DNA from: a virus
IMG/VR virus record: IMGVR_UViG_3300045988_000105
Location: 1-5,930 of that record
Direction: 5' to 3' (one strand)
DNA length: 5,930 nt
In this document: positions 1 through 5,930 of the stretch, one piece after another
Position numbering within the stretch: the stretch's first letter is position 1
Layout of the letters: every line of letters starts with the position of its first letter
Position numbers and translations under genes: made by a program
Notes under the pieces: model-generated
Seen by the model: the letters and a program-made list of their open reading frames with translations, nothing else
Database searches by the model: none
What the model was told of the DNA's origin: nothing

Positions 1-1047
1 ACTAGTTTTGTTACGTTATATGCTGATATGCTTAAGATGCGCTATGCTAATTACCCGAAGGACTATTTTATGGGTATGTTGCCTTCTTCTCAATATGGCT
101 CGGTAGCTGTTTTACCTGCTCTTAATTCTTCTCATGAATCCACTTCTGTTGCTCTTGGTACTGATTTTCGTTTAGGCTCGTATGCTATGATTACGAATCC
201 TAATGGTGGCACTTCTGTGGTTGCTTCTCCCTCTAATTCTGTCGGTTCTGCTAAATATGCGTATTTAAATTCCGATCTCTCCGCCCTATCGCTTCGTGCT
301 ACAGAGTATCTCCAGCGCTGGAAAGAAGTAGTGCAATTCTCCAGCAAGGATTATTCAGATCAGATGGCTGCCCAATTCGGTATTAAGGCCCCCGAATATA
401 TGGGTAATCATGCTCATTATATTGGAGGTTGGTCTAATGTAATCAATATCAATGAGGTAGTTAATACTAATCTCGATACTGATACTTCTCAGGCTTCTAT
501 TGCTGGTAAGGGTGTCTCTAGTCAGTCAGGACATGATATTACTTTTGATTGTGGTGCGGAGCATCAGGTTATTATGTGTGTTTATCATGCTGTTCCTCTA
601 TTGGATTGGAACCTTACAGGCCAGAACCCTCAGTTAACTACGACTGCTGTTTCCGACTTTCCTCAGCCTGCGTTCGATCAGCTTGGTATGCAGGCTGTTC
701 CTGCCCTTAATCTTCAGAATAACCCCGGACGTAAAGTTTCCGGTTCTCTTGGTTATAACCTTCGCTATTGGCAATGGAAATCTAACATTGATACCGTCCA
801 TGCCGGATTCCGTGCTGGTGCTGCTTATCAGTCTTGGGCTGCTCCTCTTGATGGTTGGCAGGTTCTTACTTCTGCTGGTGCTTGGTCTTATCAGTCTATG
901 AAGGTTCGTCCTCAGCAATTGAACCCTATTTTTGTTCCCCAGGTTGATGTTGCGAATTGTTCTGTTGCGTTTGATCAGTTATTGTGTAATGTTAATTTCC
1001 AAGTATATGCCGTTCAAAACTTGGACCGTAATGGTTTACCTTATTAA
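1..1047 (+). CDS. VP1: Major capsid protein (Microviridae F/VP1), C-terminal 348 codons. The 5' part of the same gene is at 5133-5930 because the circle was opened inside it.
   Basis: Frame 1 is open from base 1 (ACT AGT TTT ...) to TAA at 1045-1047; the ORF track only starts at an internal Met at 28. Bases 1-99 equal 5832-5930 and are in frame with the ATG at 5133, giving 699 + 1047 nt = 581 codons plus stop, a typical size for a microvirus capsid protein. Third-codon-position T bias is strong (GCT, TCT, GGT, GTT). The identification rests mainly on the N-terminal part. Confidence 0.92.
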   Translation, partial: TSFVTLYADMLKMRYANYPKDYFMGMLPSSQYGSVAVLPALNSSHESTSVALGTDFRLGSYAMITNPNGGTSVVASPSNSVGSAKYAYLNSDLSALSLRATEYLQRWKEVVQFSSKDYSDQMAAQFGIKAPEYMGNHAHYIGGWSNVININEVVNTNLDTDTSQASIAGKGVSSQSGHDITFDCGAEHQVIMCVYHAVPLLDWNLTGQNPQLTTTAVSDFPQPAFDQLGMQAVPALNLQNNPGRKVSGSLGYNLRYWQWKSNIDTVHAGFRAGAAYQSWAAPLDGWQVLTSAGAWSYQSMKVRPQQLNPIFVPQVDVANCSVAFDQLLCNVNFQVYAVQNLDRNGLPY

Positions 1048-1057
1048 TTTGTTTGAT

Positions 1058-1501
1058 ATGAGAAAATTTGCTTATAAAAATCCCGATTTTATTAAAGATG
1101 ATTATGTTCCTGAATTAGTTGAAGATCATCCGTGTTATCAGGCGTCTGTATATGATCAGGTGATGTATGATGAAACTCCTGATGGTGATTTGATTCAGTG
1201 CGATATGACCCAAATCCTGTTGAATCAGGAAAAATATCGTCGTCTGCTTGGTGATATGAATGTTCAGGATATCCTATCTCAGATGCATCCTACTCAATCT
1301 ACTATTATGGATAGTATGACCGATGAAGAGCGATTCGCTTGCGTAATTTCTCGTCATTGTCAGACAATGTCTGAGAGACAGGCTGTACTTCAACAGCTGG
1401 CTAGTGAGAAGTCTGAGCTAACGGCTTATGCCGAAGCGATGTTGGCAGAGCAACAGTCAGCGCCCGATCCGTCGTCCGCCCCTGACGCTCCCGCTCAATG
1501 A
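1058..1501 (+). CDS. Hypothetical acidic 147-aa protein with a Pro/Ala/Ser-rich C-terminal tail; possible internal scaffolding (VP3-like) protein.
   Basis: ATG at 1058 lies 10 nt after the capsid stop. The longer tracked ORF (932-1501) begins at a TTG, and its first 42 codons are Leu/Ile-rich off-frame translation of the capsid 3' end. The product (MRKFAYKNPDFIKDDYVPELVEDH...) is rich in D/E/Q and ends SAPDPSSAPDAPAQ. Its TGA overlaps the next ATG (ATGA at 1498-1501). Function is guessed from size and position in the structural module only. Confidence 0.72.
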   Translation: MRKFAYKNPDFIKDDYVPELVEDHPCYQASVYDQVMYDETPDGDLIQCDMTQILLNQEKYRRLLGDMNVQDILSQMHPTQSTIMDSMTDEERFACVISRHCQTMSERQAVLQQLASEKSELTAYAEAMLAEQQSAPDPSSAPDAPAQ

Positions 1502-2661
1502 GGTTCTATGATATTGGAGAAAGTCCCTTAATGGGACTCTCTGAAAAGTGTATTGCTCCGCTTGTTCTTGGTGGTATTATTGCTGCTGGCGCTTCTCTTG
1601 CTGGTAATGTGATCGGATCTGCTTCTCAGAACAAGACTAATCAGACTAGTATTGATATTAATCGTGAGAATAATGCGTTTAACGCCGAGCAGGCTCAGAT
1701 CCAGCGTAATTGGCAAGAAAAAATGTGGGGAATGAATAATGCCTATAATTCCCCCAATGCTATGATTTCTCGTGGTTTAAATCCGTTTGTCCAAGGCTCT
1801 GCCGCATTGGCTGGCTCTAAGTCTCCCGCTTCAGGAGGCGCTGTCGCTTCTGCTGCTGGTATGCCTAGTTTACAGGCGTTTCGCCCTGATTTTTCCGATG
1901 TCGGCTCTGCTCTTGCTTCTATGGCTCAGGCTCGTGCTGCTATGATTAATGCTGAGAGTAATGCTGCTCTTACTCCGTATAAGATGCAACAGATTCTTGG
2001 TGCTACTGATTATCGTAATATTGGTGTTGGTCAGTCAGGTTATTGGAATGCGTCTACTGGCCGCCGATCTGCTCTATTGGATCAGTCCAAGGAATATCAG
2101 GAGCTTAAGAATATGGAGTTTGCCGGCCGTCTTACTTCTGCTCAGGAAGCGCAGATTCTTCTTGATTCTGAAGCTCAACAGGTGCTTAATAAGTATCTTG
2201 ATGAGCAGCAGCAGGCTGATCTGTTTATTAAAGGCCAGACCCTTGCTAATTTGTATGCTCAAGGTGCTTTATCTGAAGCCCAATATAAAAACCAGATGGC
2301 TCAAGCTGTTAAGGCTGCTGCTGAAACCAATGGCATTCGTATTAATAATAAGATTGCCTCCCAAACTGCTGATTCTCTGATTTATGCCAATATTCAATCT
2401 AATCGTTCTCGTGGTTTATCTTCATTATGGGATTCTAAGAATGTAAATGTTCTCAAGAATATTGAATATTCTAAGGACAAGGCTCTACGAGACTATTATA
2501 AATGGTCCGCTAAGGAAAAACAGAAAGATGTTAAATCTTATGAGTTACGTAATACTCTTGATTATGGCACGCGTATGTTTACCGGTACAGGTAATACTGT
2601 TGGCACTCTGAAACGGTCCTTTCCTGATAAGCCATCGCCCGTAAAAGGTTTTGGTAGGTAA
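1498..2661 (+). CDS. VP2: Minor capsid / DNA pilot protein (Microviridae VP2, phiX174 H analogue), 387 aa.
   Basis: N-terminal hydrophobic Gly/Ala segment (IAPLVLGGIIAAGASLAGNVIGSA), then NAFNAEQAQIQRNWQEKMWGMNNAYNSPNAMISRGLNPF. This resembles the conserved ...W/F-Q-E-(K/R)-M-(S)-N-T-A-(Y/H)-Q-R...AGLNP block of microvirus pilot proteins. A long Gln/Ala-rich predicted coiled-coil follows. An alternative start is ATG 1531 (MGLSEK...), preceded by GGAGA at 1516-1520. Confidence 0.87.
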   Translation: MRFYDIGESPLMGLSEKCIAPLVLGGIIAAGASLAGNVIGSASQNKTNQTSIDINRENNAFNAEQAQIQRNWQEKMWGMNNAYNSPNAMISRGLNPFVQGSAALAGSKSPASGGAVASAAGMPSLQAFRPDFSDVGSALASMAQARAAMINAESNAALTPYKMQQILGATDYRNIGVGQSGYWNASTGRRSALLDQSKEYQELKNMEFAGRLTSAQEAQILLDSEAQQVLNKYLDEQQQADLFIKGQTLANLYAQGALSEAQYKNQMAQAVKAAAETNGIRINNKIASQTADSLIYANIQSNRSRGLSSLWDSKNVNVLKNIEYSKDKALRDYYKWSAKEKQKDVKSYELRNTLDYGTRMFTGTGNTVGTLKRSFPDKPSPVKGFGR

Positions 2662-2708
2662 ATTTATACATTCTTCAGGACTAGAAGCCCATCACGGCGC
2701 TTGAGTGA

Positions 2709-2716
2709 TATACACC
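2709..2716 (+). repeat. Distal copy of the 8-mer TATACACC (TATACACCT).
   Basis: Exact match to the two copies at 2837-2844 and 2848-2855. The 9-mer TATACACCT is shared with the 2837 copy. Confidence 0.7.
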
Positions 2717-2746
2717 TGCTGCCCGCATAGGGCCTGATCGAAATAT

Positions 2747-2790
2747 GGAGCGGAGCGACTTCCTTATAGGAGCGTTCCGCTCCGGTATTT
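2747..2790 (+). terminator. Strongest hairpin in the window, followed by a T-run. Candidate intrinsic terminator of the structural transcript and/or an ssDNA structural signal.
   Basis: GGAGCGGAGCG (2747-2757) pairs with CGTTCCGCTCC (2773-2783): 11 bp including one G-T/G-U wobble. An inner TCCT/AGGA stem (2761-2764 / 2768-2771) sits in the loop. GGTATTTTA follows. It lies 86 nt downstream of the VP2 stop. The T-run is short and offset by 4 nt, so the terminator role is uncertain. Confidence 0.4.
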
Positions 2791-2792
2791 TA

Positions 2793-2804
2793 GCACGAAG
2801 GTGC
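2793..2804 (+). repeat. Mini-hairpin GCAC-GAAG-GTGC containing the CGAAG core.
   Basis: A 4-bp stem, GCAC/GTGC, around GAAG. It shares the CGAAG core with the two GCGAAGC elements downstream. Confidence 0.6.
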
Positions 2805-2809
2805 GCAAA

Positions 2810-2831
2810 GGCAGATTCTATCTGATCTGCC
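2810..2831 (+). repeat. Perfect 7-bp inverted repeat (hairpin) GGCAGAT-N8-ATCTGCC.
   Basis: GGCAGAT (2810-2816) and ATCTGCC (2825-2831) are exact reverse complements. The loop is TCTATCTG. Confidence 0.8.
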
Positions 2832-2836
2832 GTGTC

Positions 2837-2855
2837 TATACACCTTGTATACACC
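2837..2855 (+). repeat. Two TATACACC copies in direct orientation, start-to-start spacing 11 nt (iteron-like).
   Basis: gtcTATACACCttgTATACACCc: copies at 2837-2844 and 2848-2855. The second overlaps the palindrome GTATAC (2847-2852). A third copy is at 2709-2716. Confidence 0.75.
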
Positions 2856-2876
2856 CACTTTGTTATTGTTATTTAA

Positions 2877-2902
2877 GCGAAGCCCCTAGTTGTGTGCGAA
2901 GC
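2877..2902 (+). repeat. Two exact copies of GCGAAGC (a DNA mini-hairpin motif) separated by 12 nt.
   Basis: GCGAAGC occurs at 2877-2883 and 2896-2902. I did not spot further copies elsewhere by eye. Confidence 0.8.
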
Positions 2903-2903
2903 A

Positions 2904-2927
2904 AAACCCGAGTTATCATCTCGGTTT
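2904..2927 (+). terminator. Hairpin followed by a U/C-rich tract. Second terminator-like or ssDNA structural element.
   Basis: AAA-c-CCGAG (2904-2912) pairs with CTCGG-TTT (2920-2927): 8 bp with one bulged C, loop TTATCAT. It runs straight into TTTCTCCTTCCTCTT. Confidence 0.35.
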
Positions 2928-3004
2928 CTCCTTCCTCTTGTCTATAAACGCACAACTCACACTCCATCATAAATGTCCCTTCCCCCACAATATTTAAAAA
3001 AATA

Positions 3005-3036
3005 TTTGGTAATTTCAAAAAAAGATCATACTTTTG
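3005..3036 (+). promoter_or_regulatory. Bacteroidota (sigma-AB type) promoter: -33 TTTG and -7 TAnnTTTG.
   Basis: TTTG at 3005-3008, a 20-nt spacer, then TAcTTTTG at 3029-3036, which is an exact match to TAnnTTTG. The site sits in an A-tract-rich zone about 50 nt upstream of the ATG at 3087. I found no comparable match upstream of rep or the capsid gene. Confidence 0.55.
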
Positions 3037-3086
3037 TCCGCTGTAGAAGTTACAATTATTATTAACATTTTAAACATTTTACAATT

Positions 3087-3284
3087 ATGCAAAAATTTAT
3101 TATTTCAGTTAAGGAAAAAACTACCGGTCGTGATGTTATTCCGCCTTATGTTGTTAATTCTCTCGAAGGTCTTGGACATTATTCTGAGCGAGTTTCTCGA
3201 TTGGGTCTTATCGTTATTGTGGATTCGATTAGAGAGGAAGATAATTTTGTTGAACTTAAAACTCGGGAAGATGAAGAGCAGTAA
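3087..3284 (+). CDS. Hypothetical 65-aa protein with an acidic C-terminus; first ORF after the promoter.
   Basis: ATG start, ordinary amino-acid composition, and the same strong T3 codon bias as the structural genes (GTT, GGT, CGT, GAT, ATT, CCT, TAT). I recognise no motif. Confidence 0.5.
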   Translation: MQKFIISVKEKTTGRDVIPPYVVNSLEGLGHYSERVSRLGLIVIVDSIREEDNFVELKTREDEEQ

Positions 3285-3354
3285 TATTTGGAAGATTGTT
3301 ATTGGCGCTATTTCTGCTGCTTTAGGCTATATTCTTAGCGCTATCGGTGTTTGA
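3271..3354 (+). CDS. Hypothetical 27-aa single-pass membrane peptide (MKSSNIWKIVIGAISAALGYILSAIGV).
   Basis: ATG at 3271 overlaps the last 14 nt of the 65-aa ORF in another frame. Lys residues at positions 2 and 8 flank the N-terminal segment, followed by a 19-residue hydrophobic stretch. About 17 of 27 codons end in T, matching this genome's coding signature in this frame. The very short length keeps confidence modest. Confidence 0.4.
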   Translation: MKSSNIWKIVIGAISAALGYILSAIGV

Positions 3355-3365
3355 TTGATTTTATT

Positions 3366-3383
3366 ATTTATATTTATATTTAT
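3366..3383 (+). repeat. Tandem (ATTTAT)x3 in the AT-rich spacer upstream of rep.
   Basis: ATTTAT occurs at 3366-3371, 3372-3377 and 3378-3383. Confidence 0.7.
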
Positions 3384-3406
3384 TGCCGTTTCAGGCTCTT
3401 GGTTAT

Positions 3407-5086
3407 ATGAAATTTTCTCCTGATTTGCTTAAGGCAGCTGACCATTGTCAGCATCGTTCATTTATTACGAACAAGTACACCGGTGCACGCATTGCTGTAG
3501 ATTGCGGTCAATGCGATTATTGTATCCATAAGAAGGCCCAGAAGGCGTCTATGCGAGTGAAGACCGCTGGAAGTGCTTTCAAGTTTTCTTACTTTGTTAC
3601 ACTTACGTATGATAATGAGCATATTCCTCTTATGAGTTGTAAGGTTCTCCATAGTGAATACGAGGATGCTGTAGGCATTTCAGGAGATATTCATTTTGGT
3701 AATGAATACCATGATTATATCCCTGTTTCCGACTATCAATGTGATGATAGCTCCGCATTGCGTCATATATTTTTCGAACAGGTACAGGGTACTGTTCCGT
3801 ATGACCGTAGAATTAAGGAGTATGTTCCTGTTAAGGACAATTGGTTCCTTAGTATGGATGCTATTCGTAGTTTTATCAGTAAGTCGCAAGCCGTTGATAA
3901 GACGGACTATCCCGTTTCTTCACAATACGGTTGTGATAATCTTATTCCCTTCCTGAACTATGTTGATGTTCAGAATTACATAAAACGTTTACGTAAATAT
4001 TTATTTAATAAATTAGGCTTCTATGGATCGCTACATTTCTACGCTGTGGGCGAATATGGTCCAGTTCATTTCCGTCCGCATTTCCATTTGTTACTATTCA
4101 CGAACTCGAACGAAGTCGCAGAGGTTCTACGACAATGTCACGATAAGAGTTGGACGTTCGGTCGTTCAGATTTCCAACGTTCCGCTGGTGGAGCTGCGTC
4201 GTACGTGTCGAGTTACGTTAATAGCCTTAGTGCTGCTCCCTTATTATATCGCTCATGCCGCTCATTTAGACCCAGGTCGAGAGCGTCTGTTGGATTCTTT
4301 GAAAAAGGTTGCGATTTCGTGGAGAGTGATGACCCTTATGCGCAAATTAAGAAAAAAATCGATTCTGTCGTTAACGGAAGAAGCTACAACTTCGGCGGTG
4401 TCTGTGTTCGGTCAACTCCACCCATGTCGTATATCCGTACCTTACTCCCCCGATTCTCGTCTGCTCGCAATGACGATAGTATTGCGATTGTTAGAATTCT
4501 TTGCGCTGTTCACCGAACGTCAGCAAGAATTGCGAAATTCGGATTCGTCGATTACAGACAGGACTCGGTCTTAAGTCTTGTTCGTGCTTATTATCAATAT
4601 CTTAAATGTAATCCTATTCTTACTGATGATGACAAGATTATATTACATTCTACTCGGTGTCTTACTAGGTTTGTTAACTGTTCTAGTGATGTCGATATTG
4701 AATCTTATATTAATAAGTTGTATAGGCTATTCTTACATGTCTATAAATTCTTCCGGAATTGGCATTTGCCTGAGTTCGGCTCTGATCTTAGTGCTTATTC
4801 CGGTCGTATTATGTTTATTATTGCGACGGGCATAGAGTATGAGAAGAAAAAAAATTATGAAAGTCTACGAGATGCGTTCAACGTACGTTCCGCTAACCCG
4901 GACATATCGGATTGTATGTTTGCGTTGCCTGCGAACGGGCAGGAGCGTGATGTCTTGTCGGATATTACATTTGAAACGGTTCAACTTCTTGAGCAACTCC
5001 GGTACCGTAGTGCGACATACTGTCGTGATATGATTAAGCACAAGAAGCTTAATGATGCTAATGATATTTTTAACCGTATGGTTTAG
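3407..5086 (+). CDS. VP4: Rolling-circle replication initiation protein (Microviridae VP4 / phiX174 A analogue), HUH endonuclease, 559 aa.
   Basis: Cys cluster CQH...CGQCDYC near the N-terminus. Motif I FVTLTY (3593-3610). KRLRK...VGEYG, then the HUH motif PHFHLLLF (HFH at 4079-4087). Two-tyrosine motif YVSSY (4202-4216). I prefer ATG 3407; the tracked start at 3383 is a TTG eight codons upstream. Stop is TAG at 5084-5086. Confidence 0.93.
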   Translation: MKFSPDLLKAADHCQHRSFITNKYTGARIAVDCGQCDYCIHKKAQKASMRVKTAGSAFKFSYFVTLTYDNEHIPLMSCKVLHSEYEDAVGISGDIHFGNEYHDYIPVSDYQCDDSSALRHIFFEQVQGTVPYDRRIKEYVPVKDNWFLSMDAIRSFISKSQAVDKTDYPVSSQYGCDNLIPFLNYVDVQNYIKRLRKYLFNKLGFYGSLHFYAVGEYGPVHFRPHFHLLLFTNSNEVAEVLRQCHDKSWTFGRSDFQRSAGGAASYVSSYVNSLSAAPLLYRSCRSFRPRSRASVGFFEKGCDFVESDDPYAQIKKKIDSVVNGRSYNFGGVCVRSTPPMSYIRTLLPRFSSARNDDSIAIVRILCAVHRTSARIAKFGFVDYRQDSVLSLVRAYYQYLKCNPILTDDDKIILHSTRCLTRFVNCSSDVDIESYINKLYRLFLHVYKFFRNWHLPEFGSDLSAYSGRIMFIIATGIEYEKKKNYESLRDAFNVRSANPDISDCMFALPANGQERDVLSDITFETVQLLEQLRYRSATYCRDMIKHKKLNDANDIFNRMV

Positions 5087-5097
5087 CCATGCGGTTT

Positions 5098-5113
5098 AAT
5101 TCTATAATTCTAT
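5098..5113 (+). repeat. Tandem 8-mer (AATTCTAT)x2 in the 46-nt rep-capsid spacer.
   Basis: AATTCTAT occurs at 5098-5105 and 5106-5113, followed by AA. It overlaps a near-miss -7 box, TAacTTTa (5113-5120). Confidence 0.65.
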
Positions 5114-5132
5114 AACTTTAATTTTATTAATT

Positions 5133-5930
5133 ATGAGTGATTTTAATCCTCTTGATCGAGCGAGGATTTCTACGCATCGATCTTCCTTCGACTTAAGTTC
5201 GAAGAAACTGTTCACCGCTAAGGTTGGTGAAATCTTGCCATGCTATTGGCAAATTGCTATCCCTGGAAATAAATATCGTATTTCCTCGGATTGGTTTACC
5301 CGTACCGTTCCTGTTAATACGGCTGCTTATACCCGTATTAAGGAGTATTATGACTTCTACGCTGTTCCGTTACGCCTGATTTCTCGTGCGCTTCCACAGG
5401 CATTTACCCAGATGACGGATTATATGACGAGTGCTGCTAGTGGTGATAAGAATACTGCTGCGTTAAGTTCTGTTCCTTATACTCCTATGTCTCAGTTTAG
5501 TACTCTGTTGCAAACTGCGAATGCTGGAGATCAGCCTAATACTCGTGATGATGCTGGTCTTCCTTATGTCTATGGCGCTTGTAAGTTATTGGATCTACTT
5601 GGTTATGGCTCTATGATTGGTAGTTCTAATACAGGTAAGGCTGCGATTACTAAGGATTATTTAGGCCTTGACAATGTCGGTGATTCGGATAATCCTCTTG
5701 TATATGATAAAAGTCAGACGGTTAATATGCTTCCTATCCTTGCTTATCAGAAGATCTATTTCGATTTCTTCAGTAACTCCCAATGGGAGAAGCATTTAGC
5801 TTATGCTTATAATGTGGATTATTGGCAAGGTACTAGTTTTGTTACGTTATATGCTGATATGCTTAAGATGCGCTATGCTAATTACCCGAAGGACTATTTT
5901 ATGGGTATGTTGCCTTCTTCTCAATATGGC
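5133..5930 (+). CDS. VP1: Major capsid protein (Microviridae F/VP1), N-terminal 266 codons; open at the window end and continues at base 100 of the window (5832-5930 = 1-99).
   Basis: ATG at 5133 with no stop to the window edge, so the ORF track misses it. My translation is MSDFNPLDRARISTHRSSFDLSSKKLFTAKVGEILPCYWQIAIPGNKYRISSDWFTRTVPVNTAAYTRIKEYYDFYAVPLRLI... This follows the N-terminal pattern of microvirus F proteins: (H/F)DLS, G-x-(I/L), PG-x, then D-(I/F)-(F/Y)-x-F/A-(Y)VP-x-R. Confidence 0.9.
   Translation, partial: MSDFNPLDRARISTHRSSFDLSSKKLFTAKVGEILPCYWQIAIPGNKYRISSDWFTRTVPVNTAAYTRIKEYYDFYAVPLRLISRALPQAFTQMTDYMTSAASGDKNTAALSSVPYTPMSQFSTLLQTANAGDQPNTRDDAGLPYVYGACKLLDLLGYGSMIGSSNTGKAAITKDYLGLDNVGDSDNPLVYDKSQTVNMLPILAYQKIYFDFFSNSQWEKHLAYAYNVDYWQGTSFVTLYADMLKMRYANYPKDYFMGMLPSSQYG
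5832..5930 (+). repeat. 99-nt exact duplicate of bases 1-99 (circular-assembly overlap).
   Basis: Base-by-base comparison shows identity over all 99 nt. The repeat lies inside the capsid ORF and preserves its frame. Confidence 0.97.

Follow-up and report, generated by a model that had tools for sequence, protein, structure and literature searches.

The DNA considered here, referred to as the window, is the whole 5,930-nucleotide (nt) stretch given by positions 1 to 5,930 of the IMG/VR virus record IMGVR_UViG_3300045988_000105, and the element in question is an interval of 425 nt in it (positions 2662-3086, the island), which separates the gene for the VP2 pilot protein of a microvirus from a small conserved open reading frame (ORF) of 65 amino acids (aa). 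The island is non-coding, structured and modular, its helices covary, and it is conserved throughout a lineage of microviruses beyond the divergence of their proteins. By analogy with better known phages, we propose that it is a cis-acting replication-control region, which would act as folded single-stranded DNA (ssDNA) in the packaged (+) strand and prime the synthesis of the complementary strand, and to this proposal we give about an even chance of being right.

That the interval is free of genes had been stated in a first-pass annotation of the window, and this is borne out. VP2 ends at 2661 and the next conserved ORF starts at 3087, the ORFs within 2662-3086 are at most 57 aa long and match neither Pfam nor PHROG families, and no reading frame is kept across 127 homologous elements, in which the longest stop-free stretch has a median length of 61 out of 100 possible codons. 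These 127 distinct sequences come from INPHARED and IMG/VR, and those from IMG/VR were retrieved by two core motifs, both of them invariant 19-mers.

The hairpin density that had been noted by eye is matched by the folding energy. As ssDNA, the + strand of the island folds with -53.4 kcal/mol, as compared with -35.4 +/- 3.6 kcal/mol for dinucleotide shuffles (z = -5.0), and none of 100 shuffles folds as well. The corresponding z values are -3.85 for the - strand as ssDNA and -5.5 for the island as RNA. When the genome is scanned in 300-nt segments of ssDNA, the mean z is -0.78 with a standard deviation of 1.63, while segments in the island score -3.3 and -4.1. Only the segment 5101-5400 scores lower, which makes the island the second most structured stretch of the genome.

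Comparison between relatives turns this folding propensity into a structure model with 13 helices (Table 1), built by an all-against-all covariation scan followed by inspection, with covariation counted on 76 representatives that are less than 92% identical. Standard base pairs fill 94.5% of the cells of the model, as compared with 29-46% when the 3' partners are slid by one to three columns. Changes on both sides of a pair are seen in 39 of the 61 pairs (shuffle mean 13) and in 230 cells (shuffle mean 64), and these values are reached by none of 500 shuffles. RNAalifold finds a three-way junction in the 3' part, where 16 of 27 pairs are compensated. Conserved stems with compensatory changes, which the first-pass annotation had suggested looking for among relatives, are therefore clearly found. 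Seven of the stem-loops that it had listed (2721-2733, 2747-2783, 2793-2804, 2810-2831, 2877-2883, 2896-2902 and 2904-2927) match supported helices, and an eighth (2685-2702) has comparative support in part. Absent from that list are the helices 2691-2695/2705-2709 and 2717-2719/2725-2727 and the long-range stem 2888-2895/2950-2957. At two sites, where helix Ha meets Hb and where X meets Hc, the topology is that of a pseudoknot or of competing folds, and each of these four helices has some compensatory support. The folded part does not fill the whole of the 425 nt; the last ~80 nt (3005-3086) consist of a promoter and a leader and lie outside the folded element.

The island is a vertically inherited part of the genome throughout the lineage. 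A blastn search of INPHARED with the 425 nt returns 34 records with 74-80% identity, and these relatives stem from dog faeces, lemur faeces and saliva (the 'Dulem viruses') and a human vaginal sample. For some of them, Dulem virus 238 being one, megablast with the whole genome gives a match over only 4% of it. In every retrieved relative with gene annotation, 450-620 nt between VP2 and the 65-aa ORF are left unannotated. The two 19-mers, invariant in the first alignment, occur in 104 and 111 IMG/VR contigs, nearly all of about 6 kb. When 105 rotated genomes are aligned, positions 2707-2736, a stretch that was not used in retrieval, form the second most conserved 30-nt segment of the genome (0.971), ahead of all 30-nt segments in coding sequence.

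Conservation is not uniform along the island. The first-pass annotation had treated it as a single element, whereas the comparison reveals a modular one, with a 96-nt core at the 3' side (2871-2966) that is universal, and with a 5' two-thirds that has been lost or replaced in some close relatives. Consider first the core, which forms the three-way junction. Among the 127 sequences, the P1 pair 2894-2951 is G-C in 121, A-T in 4, C-G in 1 and G·T in 1; the P2 pair 2896-2902 is G-C in 74, C-G in 48 and A-T in 4; and in P3 the pair 2908-2924 is C-G in 47 and T-A in 77, and the pair 2909-2923 C-G in 87 and T-A in 37. The stretch 2928-2966, which spans the joiner and the tail, reads CTTGTCYATAAACGCACAACTCACAC. 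A covariance model of the core (R1) finds full-length copies (78-81 bits) in three distant loci (L098, L127 and L128), the proteins of which are only ~45% (capsid), 33% (VP2) and 35-40% (Rep) identical to those of the window. Compensation in this distant clade is complete in P1 (from G-C to C-G) and in P3, the unpaired flanks have hardly changed, and the identity of 64/98 is concentrated at both ends of the core. In L129, with a capsid identity of ~30%, R1 finds no copy of the core.

A further correlation within the core links the closing pair of P2 (GCGAAGC or CCGAAGG) to the start of the joiner (TTCTC or TTCGG), i.e., 2896-2900 to 2926-2930 in the window. An alternative pairing of CCGAA with TTCGG may compete with P2, or the correlation, which has exceptions, may be phylogenetic.

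The 5' module (2683-2856) consists of helices that are just as regular where it is present. Among the 127 sequences, the Hb pair 2694-2706 is G-C in 103, A-T in 14 and C-G in 4, the X pair 2717-2727 is C-G in 111, T-A in 8 and G-C in 4, the He pair 2770-2782 is G-C in 76 and A-T in 46, and the Hf pair 2795-2802 is A-T in 95, G-C in 29 and never G·T. The Ha pair 2685-2700 is A-T in 84 and G-C in 18 of 118 sequences, and helices 1-2 of the model are 94-96% paired. In some relatives Hc takes the form CCT/AGG or GGCC/GGCC, and the CCTG at its 3' side is nearly invariant in relatives. A long stem, 2747-2757/2773-2783, is 94.3% paired with compensation at 2753-2777 (G-C in 117, A-T in 7), and a mismatch A2754·C2776 is found in 29 of the 76 representatives. 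The same segment can form the mini-hairpin 2750-2756, with the loop GGA in 116 sequences and GAA in 7, together with the local hairpin He. The family is compatible with both folds.

At least 110 of about 125 loci have the complete module. L039 and L070 (Rep 81% identical) and the L098/L127/L128 clade lack it or have a substitute for it, and L013 and L021 retain a part of it, yet none of these has lost the core. In L039 the place of the module upstream of the core is taken by a hairpin of 17 pairs followed by ATTTTTT, which is strongly terminator-like, and L013 and L070 have in common an unrelated alternative segment of ~190 nt at the linker.

The linker between 2856 and 2871 of the window is also a hot spot of insertion. 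A perfect hairpin of 28 nt, CCTAGATCTATTAGTAATGGATCTAGG, has been inserted there in at least eight relatives (L003, L038, L040, L043, L079, L081, L085 and L089).

Several observations favour action of the element as ssDNA over action as RNA, none of them decisive alone. The island contains three strong mini-hairpins of the type C(GNA)G, GCGGAGC at 2750 and GCGAAGC at 2877 and at 2896, where 0.24 would be expected in 425 nt, and these make up half of the six that occur on the + strand of the genome. Across the 127 sequences the loops of these mini-hairpins are GAA, GGA or GTA, and occasionally GAAA or GTAA. DNA hairpins of the forms d(GCGNAGC) and d(GCGNNAGC) are exceptionally stable, are poorly bound by single-stranded DNA-binding protein (SSB) and recur at sites of initiation on ssDNA, with CCGAAGG in ssiA of RSF1010 and GCGGAGC in the promoters of N4 (PMC13037366). 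In those helices of the element that switch between G-C and A-T, only 6 of about 4,500 cells hold a G·T pair, the invariant T2895·G2950 and helix Hg being excluded from the count. Structured RNA families usually tolerate G·U, and the near-absence of G·T intermediates fits DNA better than RNA. To this may be added the strong terminator ahead of the core in L039 and the lack of any Rfam 15 match at E <= 1 on either strand of the window, where a search for tRNA and tmRNA also found none.

The element resembles known ssDNA initiation signals in kind but is a member of none of their families. The origin of G4, and also of St-1, alpha3 and phiK, is likewise non-coding and intergenic, lies in the packaged + strand of a microvirus and folds into several stable hairpins. 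Within its annotated primer (3970-3997), G4 forms a GCG(N)NAGC mini-hairpin of the same motif class as those of the island, namely GCGAAAGC at 3977, and in both cases a CTG stands directly 3' of a G+C-rich hairpin (...GTCCCTACTG in G4, GGGCCTG at 2730-2736 here). Both could alternate between a long hairpin and a mini-hairpin, as has been proposed for hairpin I of G4 (PMC13037366). Unlike the G4 origin, the island is placed between the pilot-protein and the replication genes rather than between the capsid and spike genes, has about twice its length, combines pseudoknot-like units with a three-way junction, and probably belongs to a phage of Bacteroidota. The n'/PriA site of phiX174 in the F-G intergenic region resembles the island in being an intergenic hairpin structure on the + strand for the start of the complementary strand, as proposed here. 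The motif GCGAAGC, at 2358 in the F-G region, is all that the two sequences have in common; the phiX174 site is a single PriA-recognised hairpin of ~55 nt, whereas the island has many helices in separable modules.

The Ff phages (M13, f1 and fd) have, like the window, one large (~500 nt) hairpin-rich non-coding region just upstream of a replication gene. Theirs holds both origins, and the Rep of the window has a G2P-like domain. RNA polymerase is drawn to the minus origin of the Ff phages by long hairpins that imitate a promoter, whereas the helices here have 3-11 bp. The ssoA, ssoU, ssoT and ssoW origins of rolling-circle plasmids and ssiA of RSF1010 are strand-specific, structured, 150-300 nt long and exchangeable as cassettes beside a Rep-specific origin. 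The exchangeability of the single-strand origins of rolling-circle plasmids has its parallel in the upstream modules that are here swapped or lost while the core is kept. The CS-6 motif of ssoA, TAGCG(T/A), is absent from 2662-3086, recognition of sso by RNA polymerase requires longer duplexes than the island has, and there is no match among the plasmids of PLSDB. For the roodoodoo- and reekeekeeviruses the same rationale has been used, i.e., intergenic ssDNA hairpins were interpreted as primosome sites by analogy with phiX174; these were one or two hairpins, predicted from folding alone (PMC9865509). The island differs from those of these unrelated clades by its multiple helices, by covariation in more than 120 genomes and by a defined universal core. 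Full-text searches of the literature outside subscription journals turned up no description of the element, or of any origin for microviruses of the gut or Bacteroidota type.

How might such an element work? In microviruses the incoming + strand is made duplex by enzymes of the host, and Rep nicks the plus origin. After injection, the + strand would become coated by host SSB, which would leave bare the C(GNA)G mini-hairpins, the two pseudoknot-like units and the three-way-junction core. The SSB-free structures would then be the landmark at which the host machinery primes the complementary strand, whether through the direct action of primase that is known from G4 or through a primosome of the PriA type, and from the primer the ssDNA would be converted to the replicative form. 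In this scheme the core (2871-2966) would be indispensable, while the 5' module (2683-2856) would serve as an exchangeable auxiliary or alternative priming cassette, and the single Bacteroidota-type promoter in the last 80 nt would subsequently drive the replication genes from the new duplex. We infer both the action at the level of DNA rather than RNA and the priming activity. The earlier interpretation as a complementary-strand origin is reasonable in the light of the conserved stems and of mini-hairpins such as those at G4 and phiX174, while those parts of it that made the island foreign and a single unit have to be corrected.

A number of points weigh against this proposal. The function is argued by analogy, and the core model R1 does not rise above 7 bits on G4 (E > 5) or 6.8 bits on phiX174 (E = 5.8), gives E = 6.2 on the M13 intergenic region, and returns nothing below E = 0.65 when applied to G4, phiX174, M13 and L129. 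A likeness to the origin of M13 (CTCTTGT...ACAAC...CTCA, compared with NC_003287) was rejected, as its local alignment score of 20 is to be compared with 16.6 +/- 2.1 for shuffles, 9.5% of which score equally high. The conserved CTG at 2734-2736 would be relevant only if the host primase resembles the E. coli enzyme. From the absence of the 5' module in L039 and L070 follows that most of the island is not essential. The folded strand is at the same time the packaged strand and the mRNA sense, so that strand asymmetry cannot separate ssDNA from RNA, and structured RNAs, too, typically have features such as compact pseudoknot-like units, an invariant T·G pair or a three-way junction in which unpaired stretches are invariant. 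That the core is extremely conserved while Rep identity drops to 35-40% would be explained equally well by nicking through Rep and by recognition through the host, and the core may be the nick site instead of, or as well as, a priming signal. Finally, the apparent invariance of the two core motifs is inflated, because these motifs were used in the retrieval of sequences.

The alternatives differ in which of these points they take as their starting point. Action at the RNA level, either as a terminator and 3'-end stabiliser in a polycistronic mRNA or as a separate structured non-coding RNA of ~290 nt, would account for the mRNA sense of the folded strand and for its good folding as RNA. Terminator-like scores are obtained for He with GGTATTTTAG at its 3' side and for P3 with TTTCTCC at its 3' side; the genome has a single promoter, so that transcripts end within the island or traverse it; and the pseudoknot-like units, the invariant T·G (G·U in RNA) and a few loops of GNRA type (GAAA, GTAA) are RNA-like. 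Most loops, however, are GNA triloops closed by C-G, which is a motif of DNA stability and not a favoured RNA loop (PMC13037366). Moreover, G·U intermediates are nearly absent, Rfam offers no match, the element has no promoter motif upstream of it and, in L039, its core is preceded by a strong terminator. Should He terminate transcription, over half of the element, including the universal core, would remain untranscribed, and we consider action as RNA unlikely. The main rival, a composite origin as in the filamentous phages, is a possible, if somewhat doubtful, reading. Here the core would be a Rep-dependent plus origin and the exchangeable upstream modules would provide complementary-strand priming, and, just as tentatively, the nick or termination site would be exposed in the joiner CTTGTCYATAAACG or in the flanking CACAC. 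It fits with such an origin that the core is present in every relative and that its long unpaired stretches, CTTGTCYATAAACG and CACAC, stay invariant even where Rep is 35-40% and the capsid ~45% identical, while the upstream part can be exchanged. Among phiX174-like phages, too, it is the plus origin of 30 nt that does not vary, whereas phiX174 and G4 have different complementary-strand origins, and the plus origin of phiX174 is directly followed by a CCCCGAAGGGG mini-hairpin. The position of the island just upstream of the replication genes, as for the M13 intergenic region, and the REP_ORF2-G2P domain of Rep point in the same direction. On the other hand, similarity to the origin sequences of M13 and phiX174 is not significant, and the phiX-like TTGATATTAAT at 1652 is not conserved in the family. 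A second candidate site exists inside rep, which is where phiX174 has its origin, in the form of a conserved hairpin TGGAAA-N14-TTTCCA with an invariant loop at ~4152-4178, and it is not obvious how a three-way junction with an unpaired joiner of 22 nt would be extruded from supercoiled duplex. Unlikely, finally, is that the two pseudoknots and the three-way junction with its invariant unpaired nucleotides make up a defined three-dimensional fold which specifically captures a replication or transcription protein of Bacteroidota (an origin of the 'DNA aptamer' kind, and as structured ssDNA a class not described before), or that they constitute a new structured phage RNA with an activity of its own. 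We know of no need for a packaging signal in microviruses.

A foreign origin and a decayed gene are both essentially excluded. The first-pass annotation had called the island compositionally foreign, and it is true that its G+C content is higher (0.48-0.50, as compared with about 0.41), that it has a C-rich skew relative to its flanks and that the hand count of 17 CpG in 2681-2960 is exact. The ratio of observed to expected CpG, however, is 1.04 in the island and 1.03 in the whole genome, from which follows that the count reflects nothing but the higher G+C content, and an enrichment beyond this is not upheld. For an attachment site of the dif type, used in integration into the host chromosome, it may be said that GGTGCGCA at 2800-2807 resembles what we take to be the start of the E. 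coli dif site, and that some microviruses of Bacteroidota and enterobacteria occur as prophages. Yet a search of 185,579 bacterial and archaeal species, each represented by a single genome, returned neither the core motif nor relatives of Rep, and PLSDB has no matching plasmid. All relatives have the element at one and the same place in the genome, and its evolution has proceeded through compensatory changes, so that a mobile insertion or an attachment site is very improbable. Even less credible is an unannotated or decayed protein-coding gene. An ORF of 108 aa is annotated in L006 at 3352-3678, and in some relatives the whole 300 nt are free of stops; but the frame is not conserved, loops contain insertions and deletions of 1-2 nt, substitutions are paired and compensatory, and neither the ORFs of the window nor that of L006 match Pfam or PHROG.

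Coding sequences (CDSs) annotated as 'hypothetical protein' lie over or next to the homologous element in the GenBank entries of Dulem viruses 242, 254 and 255 and in OP549867, and such annotations are placed at 3352-3678 in L006, 3397-3549 in L007, 3403-3555 in L010 and 3618-3914 in L002. These calls are probably spurious, since the ORF in L006 is without a family match and the frame is not conserved. For the CDS of Dulem virus 242, neither Pfam nor PHROG gave a match.

Transcription signals flank the folded element. The pattern TTTG-N17-23-TAnnTTTG, which we take to be the promoter consensus of Bacteroides and other Bacteroidota, has its only match on either strand of the genome at 3005-3036 (0.23 expected), and the scan finds no promoter motif upstream of the element. 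The match aligns with conserved TTTG boxes of the relatives, where the TTTG of the -7 box is invariant. The promoter, together with a leader that lacks a Shine-Dalgarno sequence, supports a Bacteroidota host, which the lineage probably has, and a single transcription unit, the end of which would lie within the island or ahead of it. A simple scan for terminators on both strands gives three sites, as compared with 0.7 expected, and two of these are He (2769-2783 with GGTATTTTAG) and P3 (2908-2924 with TTTCTCC), both followed by weak T-runs. The terminator of L039, situated between VP2 and the core, places the core between a terminator and the promoter.

Microviruses rank with the most abundant phages in animal guts, and, to our knowledge, phiX174 and G4 of E. 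coli are the only ones whose replication signals have been established. A large gut lineage can now be assigned a concrete element with coordinates, a structure model, a universal core of 96 nt and exchangeable upstream cassettes. The location of the second-strand start and of the Rep nick in gut microviruses thereby becomes directly testable. The element can be used as a sequence and structure marker in genome classification and helps to correct spurious gene calls. It may also be a natural case of functional ssDNA with pseudoknots, and, if it is indeed a priming signal, it would supply a minimal origin for vectors or synthetic genomes in gut anaerobes.

Table 1. Features of the non-coding interval and of its neighbourhood, in window coordinates
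Feature	Position	Strand	Remarks
189-aa ORF	932-1501	+	after capsid
VP2 pilot protein	1498-2661	+	PHROGs 'pilot protein for DNA ejection'
Non-coding interval	2662-3086	+	between VP2 and 65-aa ORF
First pseudoknot-like unit	2683-2716	+	helices Ha and Hb, then tail
Ha	2683-2689/2696-2702	+	core GCC/GGC
Hb	2691-2695/2705-2709	+	covariation
Near-invariant tail GATATACACC	2707-2716	+	follows Ha/Hb
Second pseudoknot-like unit	2717-2736	+	X overlapping Hc, then conserved CTG 2734-2736
X	2717-2719/2725-2727	+	covariation
Hc	2721-2724/2730-2733	+	GCCC-GCRTA-GGGC
Mini-hairpin GCGGAGC	2750-2756	+	inside 5' arm of long stem 2747-2757/2773-2783
Alternative fold, local hairpin He	2769-2774/2778-2783	+	then terminator-like GGTATTTTAG; segment 2747-2792
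Hf	2793-2796/2801-2804	+	loops GNAG or GGA
Invariant spacer GCGCAAAGG	within 2793-2831	+	between Hf and Hg
Hg	2810-2817/2824-2831	+	sequence variable; both-sided changes in all eight pairs
Linker region	2832-2870	+	conserved CGTGYCTATAC, optional hairpin Hh, variable linker
Hh	2837-2842/2846-2851	+	palindromic, optional; absent in one sub-clade
Core, three-way junction	2871-2966	+	96 nt; in all relatives
Mini-hairpin GCGAAGC	2877-2883	+	
P1	2888-2895/2950-2957	+	long-range stem
P2, mini-hairpin GCGAAGC	2896-2902	+	
P3	2905-2912/2920-2927	+	
Single-stranded joiner	2928-2949	+	pyrimidine-rich; 3' end is invariant CTTGTCYATAAACG
3' tail CACAC	2958-2962	+	invariant, unpaired
Spacer	2967-3004	+	C-rich then A-rich, poorly conserved; alignments A1 and A2 lose conservation right after CTCACAC
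Bacteroidota-type promoter	3005-3036	+	-33 TTTG 3005-3008, 20-nt spacer, -7 TAcTTTTG 3029-3036
Leader	3037-3086	+	A/T-rich, without Shine-Dalgarno, ahead of ATG 3087
Conserved 65-aa ORF	3087-3284	+	next conserved ORF after interval
Rep, 567 aa	3383-5086	+	REP_ORF2-G2P, phrog_942

The + strand carries all genes of the genome. The capsid ORF, which matches Phage_F and phrog_514, crosses the window ends, from 5133 to 5930 and then in frame from 1 to 1047 (614 aa), and from the continuity of this frame across 5930/1 follows that the window is a complete circular microvirus genome, linearised within the capsid gene. The 65-aa ORF is present in 124 of 126 related loci tested, with a median aa identity of 78%. 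Searches of NCBIfam and of PDB sequences gave nothing useful for the naming of the Rep family.

Some other stretches of the genome drew attention as origins or as structured DNA. The sequence TTGATATTAAT at 1652-1662 equals 11 nt of the phiX174 plus-origin core CAACTTGATATTAATAAC; it falls in a poorly conserved part of VP2 and is missing from most relatives, and was dismissed as a chance match. The most structured ssDNA stretch of the genome is 5070-5400, at the junction of Rep and capsid and the capsid start, with a z of -5.7 over 300 nt and of -6.4 for 5070-5330. A hairpin of 10 bp over the Rep stop (5072-5096) was considered as an alternative origin and rejected, as it results from an insertion of 12 nt and occurs in only about four relatives. 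Within rep, the third codon positions of 3800-4650 are unusually conserved (0.79, as compared with 0.62-0.69 in capsid and VP2). The hairpin TGGAAA-N14-TTTCCA inside the gene has the invariant loop TCGGTCGTTCAGA, and an ORF of 183 aa in another frame of rep (4023-4574) is open in 61 of 105 relatives and has no PHROG match. The region 3800-4650 could contain either a plus-strand origin internal to rep or a gene overprinted on it, in the manner of gene B of phiX174, which lies within A.

A gene for an M15-like peptidase or endolysin stands between the 65-aa ORF and Rep in 112 of 131 loci, for example at 5670-5978 in L001 and at 4041-4349 in L006, where the copy matches phrog_894 with E = 1e-15. 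From the corresponding segment of the window, 3285-3382, this gene of ~103 aa (phrog_894) is absent, and a tblastn search of the window for a remnant of it was negative.

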